64,000 nt of DNA from a virus (lineage: Duplodnaviria > Heunggongvirae > Uroviricota > Caudoviricetes). Under the pieces are notes generated by a model. The model did no database searches and was not told where the DNA came from. It saw only the letters and a list, made by a program, of their open reading frames with translations. The stretch lies in the IMG/VR virus record IMGVR_UViG_2541047873_000001; one strand, written 5' to 3'. The position numbers and the translations under genes are program-made. Of this stretch, positions 12,974-36,015 are shown piece after piece; position 1 is the first letter of the stretch, and the number at the start of each line of letters is the position of its first letter.

Positions 12974-12990
12974 TTAATTTTCTAACACAG
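12974..12990. promoter_or_regulatory. Operator-like site (TTAATTTTCTAACACAG)
   Basis: Copy of the dispersed AATTTTCTAACA motif, 14 bp after the stop of the upstream gene. Confidence 0.5.
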
Positions 12991-13159
12991 TGTGTTTTTA
13001 TACACTGTTGATCCGACGGCACGTGATCGAGTAGGATCGCGGTCACTGCTCCGGTAGCGACTGCCAAAAAAAGCAAAAGCCGCTGAGTAGCGGCTTTTGG
13101 GTGTATAAATCCACTGGCATAGATTTATACGGTAGATAGATTTTTCACGGAACTATCTG

Positions 13160-14122
13160 GTGAGTATTTTAAATTCAGTTTCAGTTACTTTCAACACTTC
13201 TGAGTATAAAAACAACACTGAATACCACAAAAAAATCAAAGGTCATCAGTTGAGTTTTTTTGCTCGTCATAGCGGTTTTCTTTCCCCTTCACATAGCGCC
13301 ATTATTGCCGAGTTCGCCAACCTGGCAGGAGCTACCGATGAATACATGATCCGTCGCTCATATGCGGATATGTCCGAGATTACAGGACGCAGTATTTCTA
13401 CTGTGCGCCGGGCATTTGCCGAAGCGACGAAGTGCGGAATGCTTGTTAAGCAGCATCAGGTAGCGAATAACAATGCTCAGGTGTGTAACGTGTACCGGTT
13501 TACAACACAATTTCTCCACTTCATTCATGTAGCAATGGAGATAGGGAGTAAGCAGGGCATCAAATTTGCCAACGCCACAAAACTGGTTAAGCAGTTGATT
13601 TCAAAGGTTCGTTATTTTTTTGAAACTGGGAACCCCCTGTTCAAATTGAACAAGTCCCCCCATGTTCAAAATGAACAGCCAATAGAAAATAAGAGTCACT
13701 CTATAGCCAAAAGAAGAGAAAGATCATGCGCGGTTCAGCCAAAGGCTTCACCAGCAGATAGTTCTCAAGCGGATAATGGGGGGCTGGATAAAAAACCAGT
13801 AATCAGGGAAGAACATACCAACCACTGCCTGGCGGCGGCAAAAGCGAGAGCTGCAAAGCGTCGTTCAGATGAGGGGCACGCAAAACGGCAGGCTCTGTAT
13901 CGTACCGCTGAAAAGCTGGCAAAAAAATTTGCATGGATACGTAGTGCCGCTACAGCAGTGAATAAGCCTAAACAATCCAGTGCCCTGGATTTCTCAATGG
14001 ATTATTCTGGCTCCCAGGGGTGTGCAAACATTGGTGAAGCCTTTGACCTGATGAAACAGCGTGGCTATCGGTCTGAATTTGACCGGGAAGACTGGTCAAT
14101 TCCGGAGGGCTTTCGGGGATGA
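13160..14122 (+). CDS. HTH DNA-binding protein, possibly from a replication or kil module
   Basis: 320 aa; winged-helix-like segment MSEITGRSISTVRRAFAEATKCGMLV; basic C-terminal half; operator sites on both sides. Confidence 0.4.
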   Translation: MSILNSVSVTFNTSEYKNNTEYHKKIKGHQLSFFARHSGFLSPSHSAIIAEFANLAGATDEYMIRRSYADMSEITGRSISTVRRAFAEATKCGMLVKQHQVANNNAQVCNVYRFTTQFLHFIHVAMEIGSKQGIKFANATKLVKQLISKVRYFFETGNPLFKLNKSPHVQNEQPIENKSHSIAKRRERSCAVQPKASPADSSQADNGGLDKKPVIREEHTNHCLAAAKARAAKRRSDEGHAKRQALYRTAEKLAKKFAWIRSAATAVNKPKQSSALDFSMDYSGSQGCANIGEAFDLMKQRGYRSEFDREDWSIPEGFRG

Positions 14123-29207: not shown

Positions 29208-29783
29208 ATGTTAACGGCGAACGATAACGCGTATTTAGAAGATGATCTCGTTTTGAGTGACTTTATAGGGCGACGAGAATGCTGGACGCAAAAGCGCGAG
29301 GAGCTTTATGCAGCGTTAGTTCGTAAAGGCGTCAACATCGAAACCGCACAGAACGGTGATATGACAGTGGTAAGTGTTGGACTGCACGGCGTAAGTGTGT
29401 CAGCAATCAATCATGAGCCGTACATTGCGTTATCCGAGTCGATGGTAAGGTTAGTTAAGTTCCTGAAGTACACAGAAGCGAATAACGTGCTCATCGCCAA
29501 AAAGAACATCCCGTTCTCATCGGCCTTTTACTGGATGATGAAGGGGCTTGATGCCCGGCGAACATCATGGCCTAAAGGGAGCTATATATCGATGCTCCGT
29601 GGCAGTGTTGGTAGCAAAGAAAAGCTCGTCGAATTCCTGCCGGAAGAGGCATTCGATATTGTTGAAGGTTGTGATGTGATGGTTATGCCTCGCCTGGTAA
29701 TGATGAATGGGGATTTACAGGCGCAGACAGACTGGTTTGCAACTGGAGTTGATATTATCGCTACTGACTGGGAGGTTTTTTGA
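29208..29783 (+). CDS. Hypothetical protein with C-terminal DUF2829-like module
   Basis: 191 aa; AAGGAG RBS; C-terminus FYWMMKGLDARRTSW...DIIATDWEVF. Confidence 0.45.
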   Translation: MLTANDNAYLEDDLVLSDFIGRRECWTQKREELYAALVRKGVNIETAQNGDMTVVSVGLHGVSVSAINHEPYIALSESMVRLVKFLKYTEANNVLIAKKNIPFSSAFYWMMKGLDARRTSWPKGSYISMLRGSVGSKEKLVEFLPEEAFDIVEGCDVMVMPRLVMMNGDLQAQTDWFATGVDIIATDWEVF

Positions 29784-30270: not shown

Positions 30271-30663
30271 ATGGAGCAAATCAGTAGCGCCGAAATAGCG
30301 GATATCATGATCAGGGCTAACTGCTATCTGACGGTCACCGAAATCACCAGCCGTGCAAAAGCACAATATCCTCACCTTCATGTGTCGCGCGTAAACGTAA
30401 ATAACATCATACGTTTTTTTGTTCGTTCCAGTCGTGCCATTTGCGAAATAGACGACCGCGTATACCCCCGGAAATATTGGTTACATGGCCTGAATGGATA
30501 CCAGTTCAAGGTGCGCGGGCGCACTCCTGAATTCGGTCGGCTGTTGGTGAAAAACACCAACCGAAAGATAGAAGCTCAATTACGAAAGGAGCAGCGTCAG
30601 TTGGTGGCGATGACTAACCAGCTATGGAACGCCGCTGTGAAAAAACGTGAGGCTTCCCTATGA
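30271..30663 (+). CDS. Putative late-gene activator (Lpa-like, positional)
   Basis: 130-aa gene between an operator and pacA, as lpa sits in P1 (from memory); no motif support. Confidence 0.35.
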   Translation: MEQISSAEIADIMIRANCYLTVTEITSRAKAQYPHLHVSRVNVNNIIRFFVRSSRAICEIDDRVYPRKYWLHGLNGYQFKVRGRTPEFGRLLVKNTNRKIEAQLRKEQRQLVAMTNQLWNAAVKKREASL

Positions 30664-32024
30664 CGTTAATTAACTGGGAAGCGCATCGAGCTAAGTTCCT
30701 GGAGTTAAGAGAAGAAACCGGGATCACCATAAAAGAATATTGCGAGCAGCATGACCTCAGCTTTAACACCGCCAGAAAGCATCTCAATATGAAAAAAAAT
30801 GAGGTTAAGGCGAAAGCTAAGGCTGCCGGGAAAAGTACAAAACAGCGCGCAAAAAGCAGCGCCACCGGCTCAAAAAAAGAGCAAAAAAAGGCTGATAAAA
30901 GCACAGAATTTACAAAAACTGACAAATCGTTAGCTGGTGGACGGTTCCGCGCCATGCCGCAAAAACAAAATGCGGATCACAAAGAAAAGCCAAGTAATAA
31001 CAACAAGATACACAAGGATGTGAAGGGATCATTTTGTGATGAAATGGGAGAAATGATCCCTAAAAGCAGCGAAAAAGCCCAACGAAACAAGGGATCATTG
31101 CAAATGATCCCTGACTCATCAGCTCAAAGCGCCACTTTGCCTGCCACCAACGTCGCCCGTGAGATGATGAAGAACGGCGCGACTGAACATTTACGACTTG
31201 CGATACAGATGGCGCAGGAACGAGCAATTCAGTATCAGGCCATCGTTGACCAGGAAGCGGAGCGACTACAGGAAGAGATTGACGCCCTCGGCGATACACA
31301 GCCAGAGGGGATGCACCCAGGGCAGCGTCTTCTCGGCCTAATAAGCGATGCGGCCTACTACATGAATGACTTTATCAGTAGGTTGGCAGCCATCTACCAG
31401 ACCGAGCAGAAGCTACGCCAGGGGGATGAAAAACTTGCGCAGGGCGCGCGTCAGCAGGCATTCAGGGAGGCTGAGGCCAGAGAAAAACTGGCGATTGCCC
31501 GCCTGCAAGCCGAGCAGCGTGGCAAAGAGATTGAGTATCGCATTGGCGCTGACGCACGCGCCGCCAGGGTTATCGCCGCCGCTATACGTATGCGTGAGCG
31601 CGAGGAGCTGGACGATATAGGCGTAGCTGAATATATCGAGCGGCAGGGCGTCAGTGTCCCGGCTATCCTGGCGGCACGAGCGGCAAAAGCGATCTCACTT
31701 CTGGAGCCTCCGGTTTCTGACGTTAACGATGTTGATGATGAGCAACTGGATAAAGAGGCGAAGCAGTTTGCCGAGCAACAAGCTGGACTCCCACAATGGC
31801 TTGCACAACGCCGGGCTGAAGTAGCGAAAATCGTTGATAGGCTTGGGATGGGGGATTACGACCGGAACGGAGAACGTAAAGCCGGTGAATTTGAGGCCAA
31901 TGATGAAGACCTGAATATAGACCCTTCCGCCACGGCTGATATCTACGGTGATTATGACGCGGGGGATACCGGTTTTGATGCTGTAGATGACGAGATTGCG
32001 ATAGACCAGCCGGAGGATGACTAA
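30660..32024 (+). CDS. pacA: Pacase small subunit PacA
   Basis: 454 aa with N-terminal HTH-like region, lysine-rich linker, acidic C-terminus; directly upstream of the large terminase; contains the GATC-hexamer cluster. Confidence 0.6.
   Translation: MTLINWEAHRAKFLELREETGITIKEYCEQHDLSFNTARKHLNMKKNEVKAKAKAAGKSTKQRAKSSATGSKKEQKKADKSTEFTKTDKSLAGGRFRAMPQKQNADHKEKPSNNNKIHKDVKGSFCDEMGEMIPKSSEKAQRNKGSLQMIPDSSAQSATLPATNVAREMMKNGATEHLRLAIQMAQERAIQYQAIVDQEAERLQEEIDALGDTQPEGMHPGQRLLGLISDAAYYMNDFISRLAAIYQTEQKLRQGDEKLAQGARQQAFREAEAREKLAIARLQAEQRGKEIEYRIGADARAARVIAAAIRMREREELDDIGVAEYIERQGVSVPAILAARAAKAISLLEPPVSDVNDVDDEQLDKEAKQFAEQQAGLPQWLAQRRAEVAKIVDRLGMGDYDRNGERKAGEFEANDEDLNIDPSATADIYGDYDAGDTGFDAVDDEIAIDQPEDD
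30970..31112. other. Candidate pac site: cluster of five Dam (GATC) hexamers inside pacA
   Basis: GATC at 30975, 31027, 31055, 31093 and 31106, arranged as GGGATCATT / AATGATCCC inverted units; P1 pac is a hexamer cluster of this kind inside pacA. Confidence 0.5.
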
Positions 32025-33532
32025 TGGCTGGTGGTCGTAAGATTAAGTGCGTCACCAGTGATCCACGTTGGCGCGATATGGTTATCAGGTATCGATACAA
32101 CTTTACCCAGGCGGTTGTCGATATTTTTGGGATGTTACCCTCCCACCAGCAGCAGCAGATCATTCAGTCAGTGCAGGAGACGGGGAGCAGGACGACCGTT
32201 ACGTCCGGACACGGAACGGGTAAGTCGTCCCTTACCGCGATGTTGCTACTAATTTTCATGATCCTGTTCCCCGACGCCCGCGTCATTATTGTTGCGAACA
32301 AAATAGGCCAGGTAAAAACAGGCGTATTCAAATACGTGAAACAGTTTTGGGCGAATGCTGTTAAGCGTCACGGCTGGTTACAGACCTATTTTGTCCTGTC
32401 TGACACCATGTTTTATGAGCGTTCCCGTAAAGGGATATGGGAAGTGCTCTGTAAAGGTTATCGACTCGGTAACGAAGAGGCACTGGCGGGGGAGCACGCT
32501 GAGCATTTACTGCTAATCCTTGATGAAGCATCGGGCATATCCGATAAGGCGATTAACGTCATGACGGGGGCGTTAACGCAGAAAGATAACCGTATGCTCA
32601 TGCTTTCCCAGCCTACGCGTCCAAGCGGTTACTTTTATGAATCTCACCATTCAAGGGCAAAGGCAGAAGGCAATCCGGAAGGTGTCTGGACGGCAATAGT
32701 CCTTAACTCTGAAGAATCACCATTCGTTGAACCGAGCTTTATTCGTGAGAAATTGCTGGAGTACGGCGGCAGGGATTCGCTGGAGTACATGGTTAAGGTG
32801 CTGGGCCAGTTCCCGCGTGCAATTAACGGGTATTTGCTTGGTCGTGATGAGTGCGACCGCGCCGCACGGCGTAAAGTGTTGCTGGAGAAAGATTGGGGCT
32901 GGGTAGCGACCGCTGACGTCGGTAATGGTCGCGACAAATCGGTGCTCAATATATGCAAAGTATCCGGTTATCGTGAGAAACGACGCGTTGTGAACTTTAA
33001 GATACTGGAGATGCCAGGCACTATGGACCCGTTGGCTTTTGCCGACTTTATCTATAACGAATGCACTCCTGATAAATACCCGAACATCACCATTGCTGTG
33101 GATGCTGATGGCTTTGGTTCAGATACGTGTGCGCAGCTTGTCCGCCGTGGTGCTAATCCCGTTCGCATCCGTTGGGGTAAGCCTATGTTTGCGCTAAGAG
33201 ACAGAGAACGCTTTGTCAATCAGCGTGCTTACGCCAATATTATGGCAGGGGATGCCATTAAATCAGGGCGTATGCGTATCGATAGTGACCCCAAAACCGC
33301 AGATCAGGCATCAAAAATCCCGTATATGCTTAACGAAGAAGGGAAGGTAGCGATGATGCGCAAGGAGCACATGCGGCAGAAGTTAAACATCAAGTCGCCG
33401 GACAGATGGGATACCTACTGCTTCACTATGCTGGTGGATTACGTGCCTGCTAATGAAGACATTGGCGCAGAACTCGCAACATTCCGCGATCAGGTGTTGG
33501 CAGAAGTGGATATTCCTGATATTGACATTTAA
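32024..33532 (+). CDS. pacB: Terminase large subunit PacB
   Basis: Walker A GHGTGKS and Walker B LLILDEASG; 502 aa; start overlaps the pacA stop. Confidence 0.85.
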   Translation: MAGGRKIKCVTSDPRWRDMVIRYRYNFTQAVVDIFGMLPSHQQQQIIQSVQETGSRTTVTSGHGTGKSSLTAMLLLIFMILFPDARVIIVANKIGQVKTGVFKYVKQFWANAVKRHGWLQTYFVLSDTMFYERSRKGIWEVLCKGYRLGNEEALAGEHAEHLLLILDEASGISDKAINVMTGALTQKDNRMLMLSQPTRPSGYFYESHHSRAKAEGNPEGVWTAIVLNSEESPFVEPSFIREKLLEYGGRDSLEYMVKVLGQFPRAINGYLLGRDECDRAARRKVLLEKDWGWVATADVGNGRDKSVLNICKVSGYREKRRVVNFKILEMPGTMDPLAFADFIYNECTPDKYPNITIAVDADGFGSDTCAQLVRRGANPVRIRWGKPMFALRDRERFVNQRAYANIMAGDAIKSGRMRIDSDPKTADQASKIPYMLNEEGKVAMMRKEHMRQKLNIKSPDRWDTYCFTMLVDYVPANEDIGAELATFRDQVLAEVDIPDIDI

Positions 33533-34802: not shown

Positions 34803-34834
34803 TAACTTTAAATAATTGGCATTATTTAAAGTTA
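34803..34834. other. rox-type recombination site (14-bp inverted arms, 4-bp spacer)
   Basis: taactttaaataat-tggc-attatttaaagtta is the reverse complement of the rox sequence TAACTTTAAATAATGCCAATTATTTAAAGTTA as I recall it; 150 bp upstream of the Cre-like gene. Confidence 0.85.
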
Positions 34835-34986: not shown

Positions 34987-36015
34987 ATGGGTGAACTAGT
35001 TATCTCCGGCGGTTCTGGTGGTTTTCTGCGCGATATTGGCACCGAATACCAGGAAGCTGCAAAAAACTTTATGCAGTTCATGAACGACCAGGGAGCTTAT
35101 GCCCCAAATACACTTCGTGATCTCCGTCTGGTGTTTCATTCCTGGGCGCGGTGGTGTAACTCGCGCCAGCGCCCCTGGTTCCCGATTACGCCGGAAATGG
35201 CCCGCGAGTATCTTCTCCAGTTGCATGAGGCCGATCTGGCTTCGACCACCATTGATAAGCACTATGCCATGCTTAACATGCTGCTTTCGCAATGTGGCCT
35301 CCCGCCGCTGTCGGACGATAAAAGTGTGTCTCTGGCCATGCGGCGCATCCGGCGCGAAGCGGCAACGGAAAAAGGCGAGCGAACAGGCCAGGCTATACCG
35401 TTGCGGTGGGATGATCTGAAATTGCTCGACGTGTTGCTGTCCCGTTCCGAGCGGCTGGTGGACCTGCGCAATCGGGCGTTTCTCTTCGTGGCATACAATA
35501 CCCTGATGCGTATGTCAGAAATCTCGCGCATCCGCGTCGGAGATCTGGACCAAACAGGTGACACTGTAACGCTGCATATTTCACACACGAAGACCATCAC
35601 GACCGCCGCAGGACTTGATAAGGTGCTTTCTCGTTACACTACCGCCGTACTGAACGACTGGCTGGAGGTGTCCGGACTTCGAGAACATCCGGACGCGGTG
35701 CTATTCCCGCCAATACACCGCAGTAATAAGGCCAGAATCACGACAACGCCCCTTACTGCACCTGCAATGGAGAAAATATTCAGCGATGCCTGGGGGTTGC
35801 TGAACAAACGAGATGCCACGCCGAACAAGGGAAGATACCGGACGTGGACAGGCCATAGTGCGCGTGTTGGTGCGGCAATTGATATGGCTGAGAAACAGGT
35901 GTCAATGGTCGAGATCATGCAGGAAGGCACATGGAAAAAGCCCGAAACACTTATGCGATATTTGCGCCGTAGCGGGGCATCCGTTGGTGCAAATAGTCGC
36001 CTGATGGATTCATAA
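34987..36015 (+). CDS. dre: Dre-type tyrosine recombinase (Cre homolog)
   Basis: 342 aa, colinear with P1 Cre from memory (HSWARWC, SVSLAMRRIRRE, AYNTLMRMSEISRIRVGD, WTGHSARVGAAIDMA); cognate rox site upstream. Confidence 0.9.
   Translation: MGELVISGGSGGFLRDIGTEYQEAAKNFMQFMNDQGAYAPNTLRDLRLVFHSWARWCNSRQRPWFPITPEMAREYLLQLHEADLASTTIDKHYAMLNMLLSQCGLPPLSDDKSVSLAMRRIRREAATEKGERTGQAIPLRWDDLKLLDVLLSRSERLVDLRNRAFLFVAYNTLMRMSEISRIRVGDLDQTGDTVTLHISHTKTITTAAGLDKVLSRYTTAVLNDWLEVSGLREHPDAVLFPPIHRSNKARITTTPLTAPAMEKIFSDAWGLLNKRDATPNKGRYRTWTGHSARVGAAIDMAEKQVSMVEIMQEGTWKKPETLMRYLRRSGASVGANSRLMDS

Follow-up and report, generated by a model that had tools for sequence, protein, structure and literature searches.

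A cluster of TGATCC hexamers inside pacA as the probable packaging-site recognition region of a D6-like phage-plasmid

Where a D6-like phage-plasmid begins to package its DNA is the question raised by five closely spaced GATC sites inside the pacA gene of the virus sequence examined here (hereafter the window, meaning the whole 64-kb stretch of DNA that was analysed). In phage P1, pac is a 161-bp region whose seven TGATCA/G repeats contain Dam sites; it is proposed to be recognised and cut depending on its methylation state, IHF and HU participate, and the phage titre falls about 9-fold when the hexamers are recoded synonymously (PMC10028697, which also summarises the P1 pac work of Sternberg and Coulby 1987, 1990 and Skorupski et al. 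1994). An earlier note on the window had likened the cluster to P1 pac. Here, we conclude with a probability of about 80% that the cluster is the recognition part of pac, the start of headful packaging, in a D6-like phage-plasmid of the P1 supergroup.

The cluster lies within the first of three features that define its genomic setting:

30660..32024, plus strand: pacA, 454 aa, small-terminase/recognition subunit; 74% amino-acid identity to D6 PacA, phrog_1711 at E=1e-167
32024..33532, plus strand: pacB, 502 aa, large terminase/nuclease-ATPase subunit; 56% identity to P1 PacB over 488 aa, phrog_2 large terminase
34803..34834, minus strand: rox, the 32-bp target of the Dre recombinase; exact 32/32 match, the same sequence being annotated rox in D6

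The identification of the gene as pacA, which the earlier note had made, is borne out by the D6 record, where the homologue of this reading frame is labelled pacA, and by phrog_1711, which is matched over its full length by window PacA and P1 PacA alike. Direct alignment of the two proteins is weak (pairwise E=1e-5), and they are barely alignable beyond a helix-turn-helix (HTH) and the C-terminus. A tblastn search of the phage collection with PacA returned D6 as the sole match and did not find P1; the link to P1 therefore runs through the PHROG profiles and PacB. Among plasmids, 121 entries of PLSDB match the window pacA, and a profile search of genome contigs with the PacA alignment yielded zero relatives. 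For PacA, neither Pfam at its default thresholds nor sequence and fold searches of the PDB returned a significant match; HTH families appear below the Pfam threshold only, and the fold search was likewise sub-threshold. An AF2 single-sequence model predicts a three-helix HTH in PacA residues 1-45 (pLDDT 79-93 over residues 1-40), with helices at 6-20, 24-30 and 35-42, the third reading FNTARKHL. For residues ~50-160 the same model predicts no secondary structure, with low pLDDT, and since the cluster codes for residues 106-151, it lies inside a stretch that is predicted to be unstructured. Judged by sequence, a PacA with a predicted N-terminal HTH and a PacB encoded downstream make this a PacA/PacB pacase, the terminase of the P1 supergroup.

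Upstream of pacA sits lpa, and rox lies 3.7 kb to the right of the GATC cluster. Based on the pacA, pacB and lpa matches together with the exact rox, we assign the window to a D6-like phage-plasmid within the P1 supergroup. We noticed that rox is identical to that of D6 (32/32) although PacA is merely 74% identical, and that a dre-like reading frame follows at 34987-36015. Elsewhere in the neighbourhood, the reading frame at 29208-29783 encodes a Tad2-like (anti-Thoeris) domain (Pfam PF11195, E=4e-10); its homologues on related plasmids bear the annotation 'MW1434 family type I TA system toxin'.

The five GATC sites of the cluster start at window positions 30975, 31027, 31055, 31093 and 31106 and span 135 bp, corresponding to nt 316-451 of the 1365-nt pacA; number, span and location in the 5' third of the gene are thus as the earlier note had described them, and pacB is directly downstream. 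The individual sites are:

30974..30979, plus strand: site A, GGATCA (TGATCC on the other strand), within CGGATCAC at 30973-30980; codes for Asp-His
31024..31033, plus strand: site B, AGGGATCATT, left arm of pair 1
31052..31061, minus strand: site C, AATGATCCCT (that is, AGGGATCATT on the minus strand), right arm of pair 1
31090..31099, plus strand: site D, AGGGATCATT, left arm of pair 2
31103..31112, minus strand: site E, AATGATCCCT, right arm of pair 2

All five sites belong to a single hexamer class, TGATCC/GGATCA, and none is TGATCA or TGATCG, so that the hexamer named by the earlier note as distinct from the TGATCA/G of P1 recurs at 5/5 sites. Its inverted 9-mers are likewise found where the sites are (GGGATCATT at 31025 and 31091, AATGATCCC at 31052 and 31103), as is the additional word CGGATCAC of site A. 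The repeat unit in fact extends to a 10-11-mer, (A)AGGGATCATT. Four of the five sites are perfect copies of AGGGATCATT, paired as two inverted repeats, of which the first (31024-31034/31051-31061) is 100% complementary around a spacer of 16 nt and the second (31090-31099/31103-31112) is 100% complementary around a spacer of 3 nt. Overall, the layout is 1+(2+2): site A, a gap of 52 bp, pair 1, a gap of 38 bp, and pair 2.

Could such a grouping have arisen by chance, with no function attached? The cluster is the densest group of five GATC sites in the 64-kb window, but an at least equally dense one occurs somewhere in 64 kb in 19% of Markov-1 simulations (scan statistic, P ~0.19), and GATC density by itself was therefore rejected as evidence. 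The words around the GATC cores tell against chance. The TGATCC/GGATCA class accounts for 5/5 sites in the cluster vs 44/234 GATC sites across the window (P ~2e-4). Furthermore, AGGGATCATT is present in four exact copies within 89 bp and in zero copies elsewhere in the 64-kb window, where the chance expectation for a given 10-mer is ~0.1 copies; in a relative of 94,247 bp (NZ_CP099353), it is confined to the homologous place. The motifs are also unchanged across lineages whose surrounding DNA is only ~60% identical. The non-random part of the cluster is thus the repeated 10-mer and its conservation, and given the uniqueness of the 10-mer and its lineage-wide invariance, we regard the chance explanation as effectively refuted, with almost no probability left to it.

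Comparison with P1 places the cluster where a pac site would be looked for. In the P1 record (NC_005856), pac is annotated at nt 195-352 of the 1194-nt pacA, in the order four TGATCA, an IHF site, staggered cuts and three TGATCA/G; the window cluster, at nt 316-451, occupies an equivalent position, in line with what the earlier note had stated. As in P1, it lies in the 5' third of pacA beside pacB, comprises several TGATCN hexamers within ~135-160 bp, and falls in a poorly conserved, low-complexity coding stretch, which in the window protein is predicted to be unstructured. The spacing to the recombination site is also similar, with ~4 kb between pac and lox in P1 and 3.7 kb between the cluster and rox here. 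In contrast to the palindromic TGATCA/G of P1, the window hexamer TGATCC is asymmetric and extended to AGGGATCATT, and instead of the 4+3 arrangement around a ~90-bp spacer there is a 1+2+2 arrangement with two inverted pairs. Because the P1 hexamer is not found here and no clear 4+3 layout is seen, we class the cluster not as an ordinary P1 pac but as a variant that would work in the same way: most likely a P1-type, Dam-gated pac with an altered, asymmetric hexamer and a different layout. A pac site recognised by the small terminase inside its own gene is also a property of P22 (gene 3), SPP1 (gene 1) and Sf6, whose pac sites are not known to consist of GATC arrays or to be subject to Dam gating.

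The closest counterpart is D6 itself, represented by AY753669 (Sauer and McDermott 2004) and MF356679 (Gilcrease and Casjens 2018). GATC lies at identical pacA coordinates in D6 and the window (316, 368, 396, 434 and 447), which also have in common the TGATCC core, the rox sequence and the order of their genes, lpa-pacA-pacB-c1-rox-dre. The two differ in PacA (74% amino-acid identity) and in the DNA of its linker (~60% nucleotide identity), and two of the four 10-mers are degenerate in D6 (GAGATCATT, GGGATCTTC), whereas all four are perfect in the window. A pac feature annotation is absent from both D6 GenBank records, and searches of full texts turned up no account of a D6-type pac, prior mention being possible in two older D6 papers.

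To what extent the DNA itself is conserved can be read from the D6 clade, which divides into a window type, a D6 type and an L062/L006 type; these three deep lineages are ~60% identical in nucleotides at pacA nt 145-480, with no indels between them across the cluster stretch. The GATC core columns are invariant at 20/20 positions across the three lineages, and the hexamer columns at 27/30, vs 133/306 of the other linker columns (Fisher P=5e-7). Gene-wide, where the amino acid is unchanged, the three lineages share one codon in only 37% of cases; the motif-internal codons GAT, TCA, ATC and ATC are fixed, and the third positions of the adjoining Pro and His codons vary. Site by site, all 6/6 columns of site A are invariant in the three lineages in differing codon contexts (A/S/E-D-H-K/E/A). 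At site B, GATCATT is invariant, and the change from KGSF to RRSL in D6 keeps the GATC through a GGA to AGA replacement. At site C, AAATGATCC is invariant next to a Pro codon whose third position is T, C, A or G; at site D, GATC is invariant despite GGA/AGA (Gly/Arg) and TCA/TCT variation; and at site E, AATGATCC is unchanged in all clade members. One D6-type contig from IMG/VR (L095) has GACC in place of GATC at site B (pacA nt 368), with the other four sites intact, which suggests that the cluster tolerates losing a single site.

Several of these conservation results speak for selection at the level of the DNA, and they bear on the alternative that the repeats are a by-product of coding repeated peptides in the PacA linker (Gly-Ser-Phe/Leu, Met-Ile-Pro). 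In keeping with such a protein-level origin, the motif-coded residues D106, S124 and MIP (twice) are invariant among the six aligned PacA proteins in a linker that is otherwise variable, and some protein-level constraint may act on them. However, one DNA word, read in three frames and both orientations, gives the unrelated peptides Asp-His, Gly-Ser and Met-Ile-Pro, and as two unrelated peptides are encoded by reverse-complement copies of the same word, only a DNA-level constraint fits. Synonymous positions are fixed inside GATC and variable just outside it, and the Gly/Arg replacements at sites B and D preserve GATC by way of GGA and AGA, which are rare codons in E. coli. In addition, the lineages L064 and L066 carry the motif at other positions and in other frames, and the PacA region concerned has no predicted structure and low model confidence. 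We therefore consider a purely coding origin very improbable.

The inverted arrangement of the sites could alternatively reflect hairpins, whether as mRNA structure, an antisense intrinsic terminator or a cruciform. The D/E pair would fold into a stem of 10 perfectly matched bp closed by a 3-nt loop, which on the minus strand resembles a terminator, and folding of the cluster region is better than that of shuffled sequences (z=-3.9). Among nine clade sequences, by contrast, there was zero compensatory change, and the covariation score was no better than in controls; variable stem positions are unpaired in 5/9, 5/9 and 7/9 of the sequences. Site A has no partner, and the T-run after the stem is poor. 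That variable stem positions break the pairing without compensation indicates that half-sites are conserved, not hairpins. With no covariation and a weak T-run, the hairpin and terminator explanation was rejected, and the odds that we would still grant it are slight.

We surveyed the supergroup using 80 loci around PacB relatives in IMG/VR plus four from plasmids, taking the reading frame upstream of pacB in each. A GATC cluster at pacA nt ~150-480 is found in nearly every gamma-proteobacterial lineage examined and is usually bipartite, and GATC density reaches 16/kb at nt 100-500, compared with 4.4/kb over the remainder of pacA (P=3e-15, from 15 lineage representatives that are partly related). 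The two parts lie at nt 195-229 and 325-348 in P1, 119-163 and 300-330 in L090, 199-243 and 326-363 in L092, and 183-235 and 310-347 in Vibrio parahaemolyticus; in the L072 type, an array at nt 154-214 with an exact 12-bp period is accompanied by sites at 363/379. The sister lineage L064 is also bipartite, its left cluster (nt 157-181) lying in a 12-nt insertion that codes for GDHLGDH; the window clade is without this left cluster. An observation in its own right is that the IMG/VR loci L072-L085 and L087 carry, at pacA nt 154-217, 5-7 TGATCA at an exact 12-bp period, coding for (x-x-Asp-His/Gln)n, an array far more regular than P1 pac.

At most of the surveyed lineages the hexamer is TGATCA, while GGGATCA/TGATCCC characterises the clade of D6 and the window, the Enterobacter-type lineage L064, L066, and the distant L098. 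TGATCA goes with a putative recognition helix of the form NTARR[YE]L, NTVRRQ or NTCRRH, and TGATCC with NTARKHL, STGRKKL or NTLRKHF. From this co-variation of helix and hexamer, which is as expected and comes from a handful of lineages, we infer that the PacA HTH probably reads the hexamers. The rule is not a simple one, as L102 combines a VRREF helix with GCGATCA. Since hexamer type tracks the PacA HTH, the proposal of a related but distinct pacase specificity, put forward in the earlier note, gains support, also from the DNA-level conservation of the motif. Outside the gamma-proteobacterial loci, plasmid pBVIE05 of Burkholderia vietnamiensis (L124) encodes a PacB relative (37% identity), and the gene upstream of it is without a GATC cluster. 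Burkholderia is assumed here to lack Dam; if so, L124 would be consistent with a GATC-based pac that is tied to Dam-positive hosts.

The survey also bears on a further explanation, namely that the cluster is a Dam- or SeqA-dependent regulatory element that has no part in initiating packaging, be it for methylation-sensitive control of pacB or of antisense transcription, or as a patch for SeqA sequestration. SeqA and Dam-sensitive regulators typically act on clustered GATC sites, and in arrays such as oriC and the heptamers of P1 oriR, a protein reads the methylation state of clustered Dam sites. Those arrays serve the control of replication initiation and lie outside terminase genes, and unlike theirs, the flanks of the window cluster form a lineage-specific word. 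Dam-linked regulation is probably present in this genome, as a second small cluster is found upstream of a repL-like gene: three GATC in 29 bp at 13010-13038, intergenic and ahead of the repL-like lytic replication gene at 13160-14122. It is the densest group of three GATC in the window, has an inverted repeat beside it at ~12986-13008, and may represent Dam-sensitive control of lytic replication. For the pacA cluster, a regulatory role has less in its favour: there is no sigma-70-like promoter in or near it on either strand, the flanks (GGGATCATT) are conserved as well and co-vary with the PacA HTH, not with a host factor, and the homologous position of P1 has been determined experimentally to be pac (PMC10028697). 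We thus consider the regulatory explanations, taken jointly, to be unlikely, and pac recognition to be the better account of the cluster.

All five sites of the cluster are targets for Dam. No Dam-like gene is present in the 64-kb window; in NZ_CP099353, the closest complete relative, a reading frame carries an adenine methyltransferase domain of the D12 class (Dam family; Pfam E=3e-51). This frame (NZ_CP099353.1 67434-68855, L121) fuses the D12 domain to a fragment of a C5-cytosine methylase, similar to Dmt of P1, so that the lineage of the window, like P1, encodes a Dam-family methyltransferase. The frame is absent from the PLSDB gene table and could be either a pseudogene or a gene that the table omits.

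Two further blocks near the sites were considered, both as tentative features:

30998..31010, plus strand: AT-rich block TAACAACAAGATA, in the A-B gap, the widest of the cluster; partly invariant across D6-clade lineages
30904..30925, plus strand: 22-bp block CAGAATTTACAAAAACTGACAA, upstream of site A; 18/22 positions invariant in the D6 clade

The AT-rich block is identical to the annotated P1 IHF site (AAACAAAGAGTTA) at 9/13 positions (10/13 for L062), a similarity that is not significant alone, and it matches the IHF consensus WATCAANNNNTTR poorly, with 2 mismatches. Across the cluster stretch there was no good match to that consensus, WATCAANNNNTTR giving 2-mismatch matches only, and the cluster is thus unlike P1 pac in having no convincing IHF site. 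The 22-bp block is kept in L064, which is 55% identical, where it lies midway between the two GATC clusters; it sits in an otherwise fast-evolving stretch, and amino-acid changes (E/K, T/I) preserve its DNA. It could be a bending or cleavage centre of pac. The CTGACAA within 30904-30925 is the reverse complement of the P1 cut-site heptamer TTGTCAG, a match that we judged to be a coincidence because D6 has TTGACAA there and other lineages are without it.

By analogy with P1, we infer binding, cleavage, Dam dependence, cut position and packaging direction at the cluster as follows. Late in infection, the pacase (PacA and PacB) would assemble on the five TGATCC hexamers, which the N-terminal HTH of PacA would read. 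For binding to lead on to cleavage, the adenines of the GATC sites would have to be methylated on both strands, a task for host Dam and, probably, for a Dmt-like enzyme of the phage as well; a host bending protein may assist. PacB would then cut inside the cluster or beside it, and packaging would proceed rightwards through pacB, c1 and rox, such that the first headful would carry rox in its terminal redundancy and Dre could circularise it. The predicted unstructured stretch of PacA would tolerate almost any sequence, leaving its DNA free to carry the packaging signal.

The biology of the cluster is what is expected for a relative of P1. Beyond it, we advance with some reserve, at rather less than even odds, that the P1 supergroup has a readable code of packaging specificity set by the PacA helix, and that the pacase geometry of the D6 clade may differ from that of P1. 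One or two residues of the recognition helix (NTAR-R-Y/E vs xxxR-K-H/K) would set the base flanking GATC (TGATCA, TGATCC or GCGATCA), and the asymmetric inverted 10-mers with a lone flanking site may correspond to a geometry unlike the 4+3 of P1. The cluster allows a test of a simple hypothesis on how the DNA specificity of a small terminase changes, and it would offer a second natural example for the study of methylation-gated packaging. Phagemids carrying P1 pac are already in use for CRISPR delivery (PMC10028697). A known pac site in the D6 type would permit phagemids that are packaged by D6-type helpers but not by P1, or vice versa, and from it the starting point of packaging series and the neighbouring genes enriched in virions could be predicted. 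E. coli, Salmonella and Shigella commonly harbour D6-like phage-plasmids, which carry DNA between strains; if the specificity code is true, P1-type and D6-type elements residing in the same cell would each package their own DNA only.
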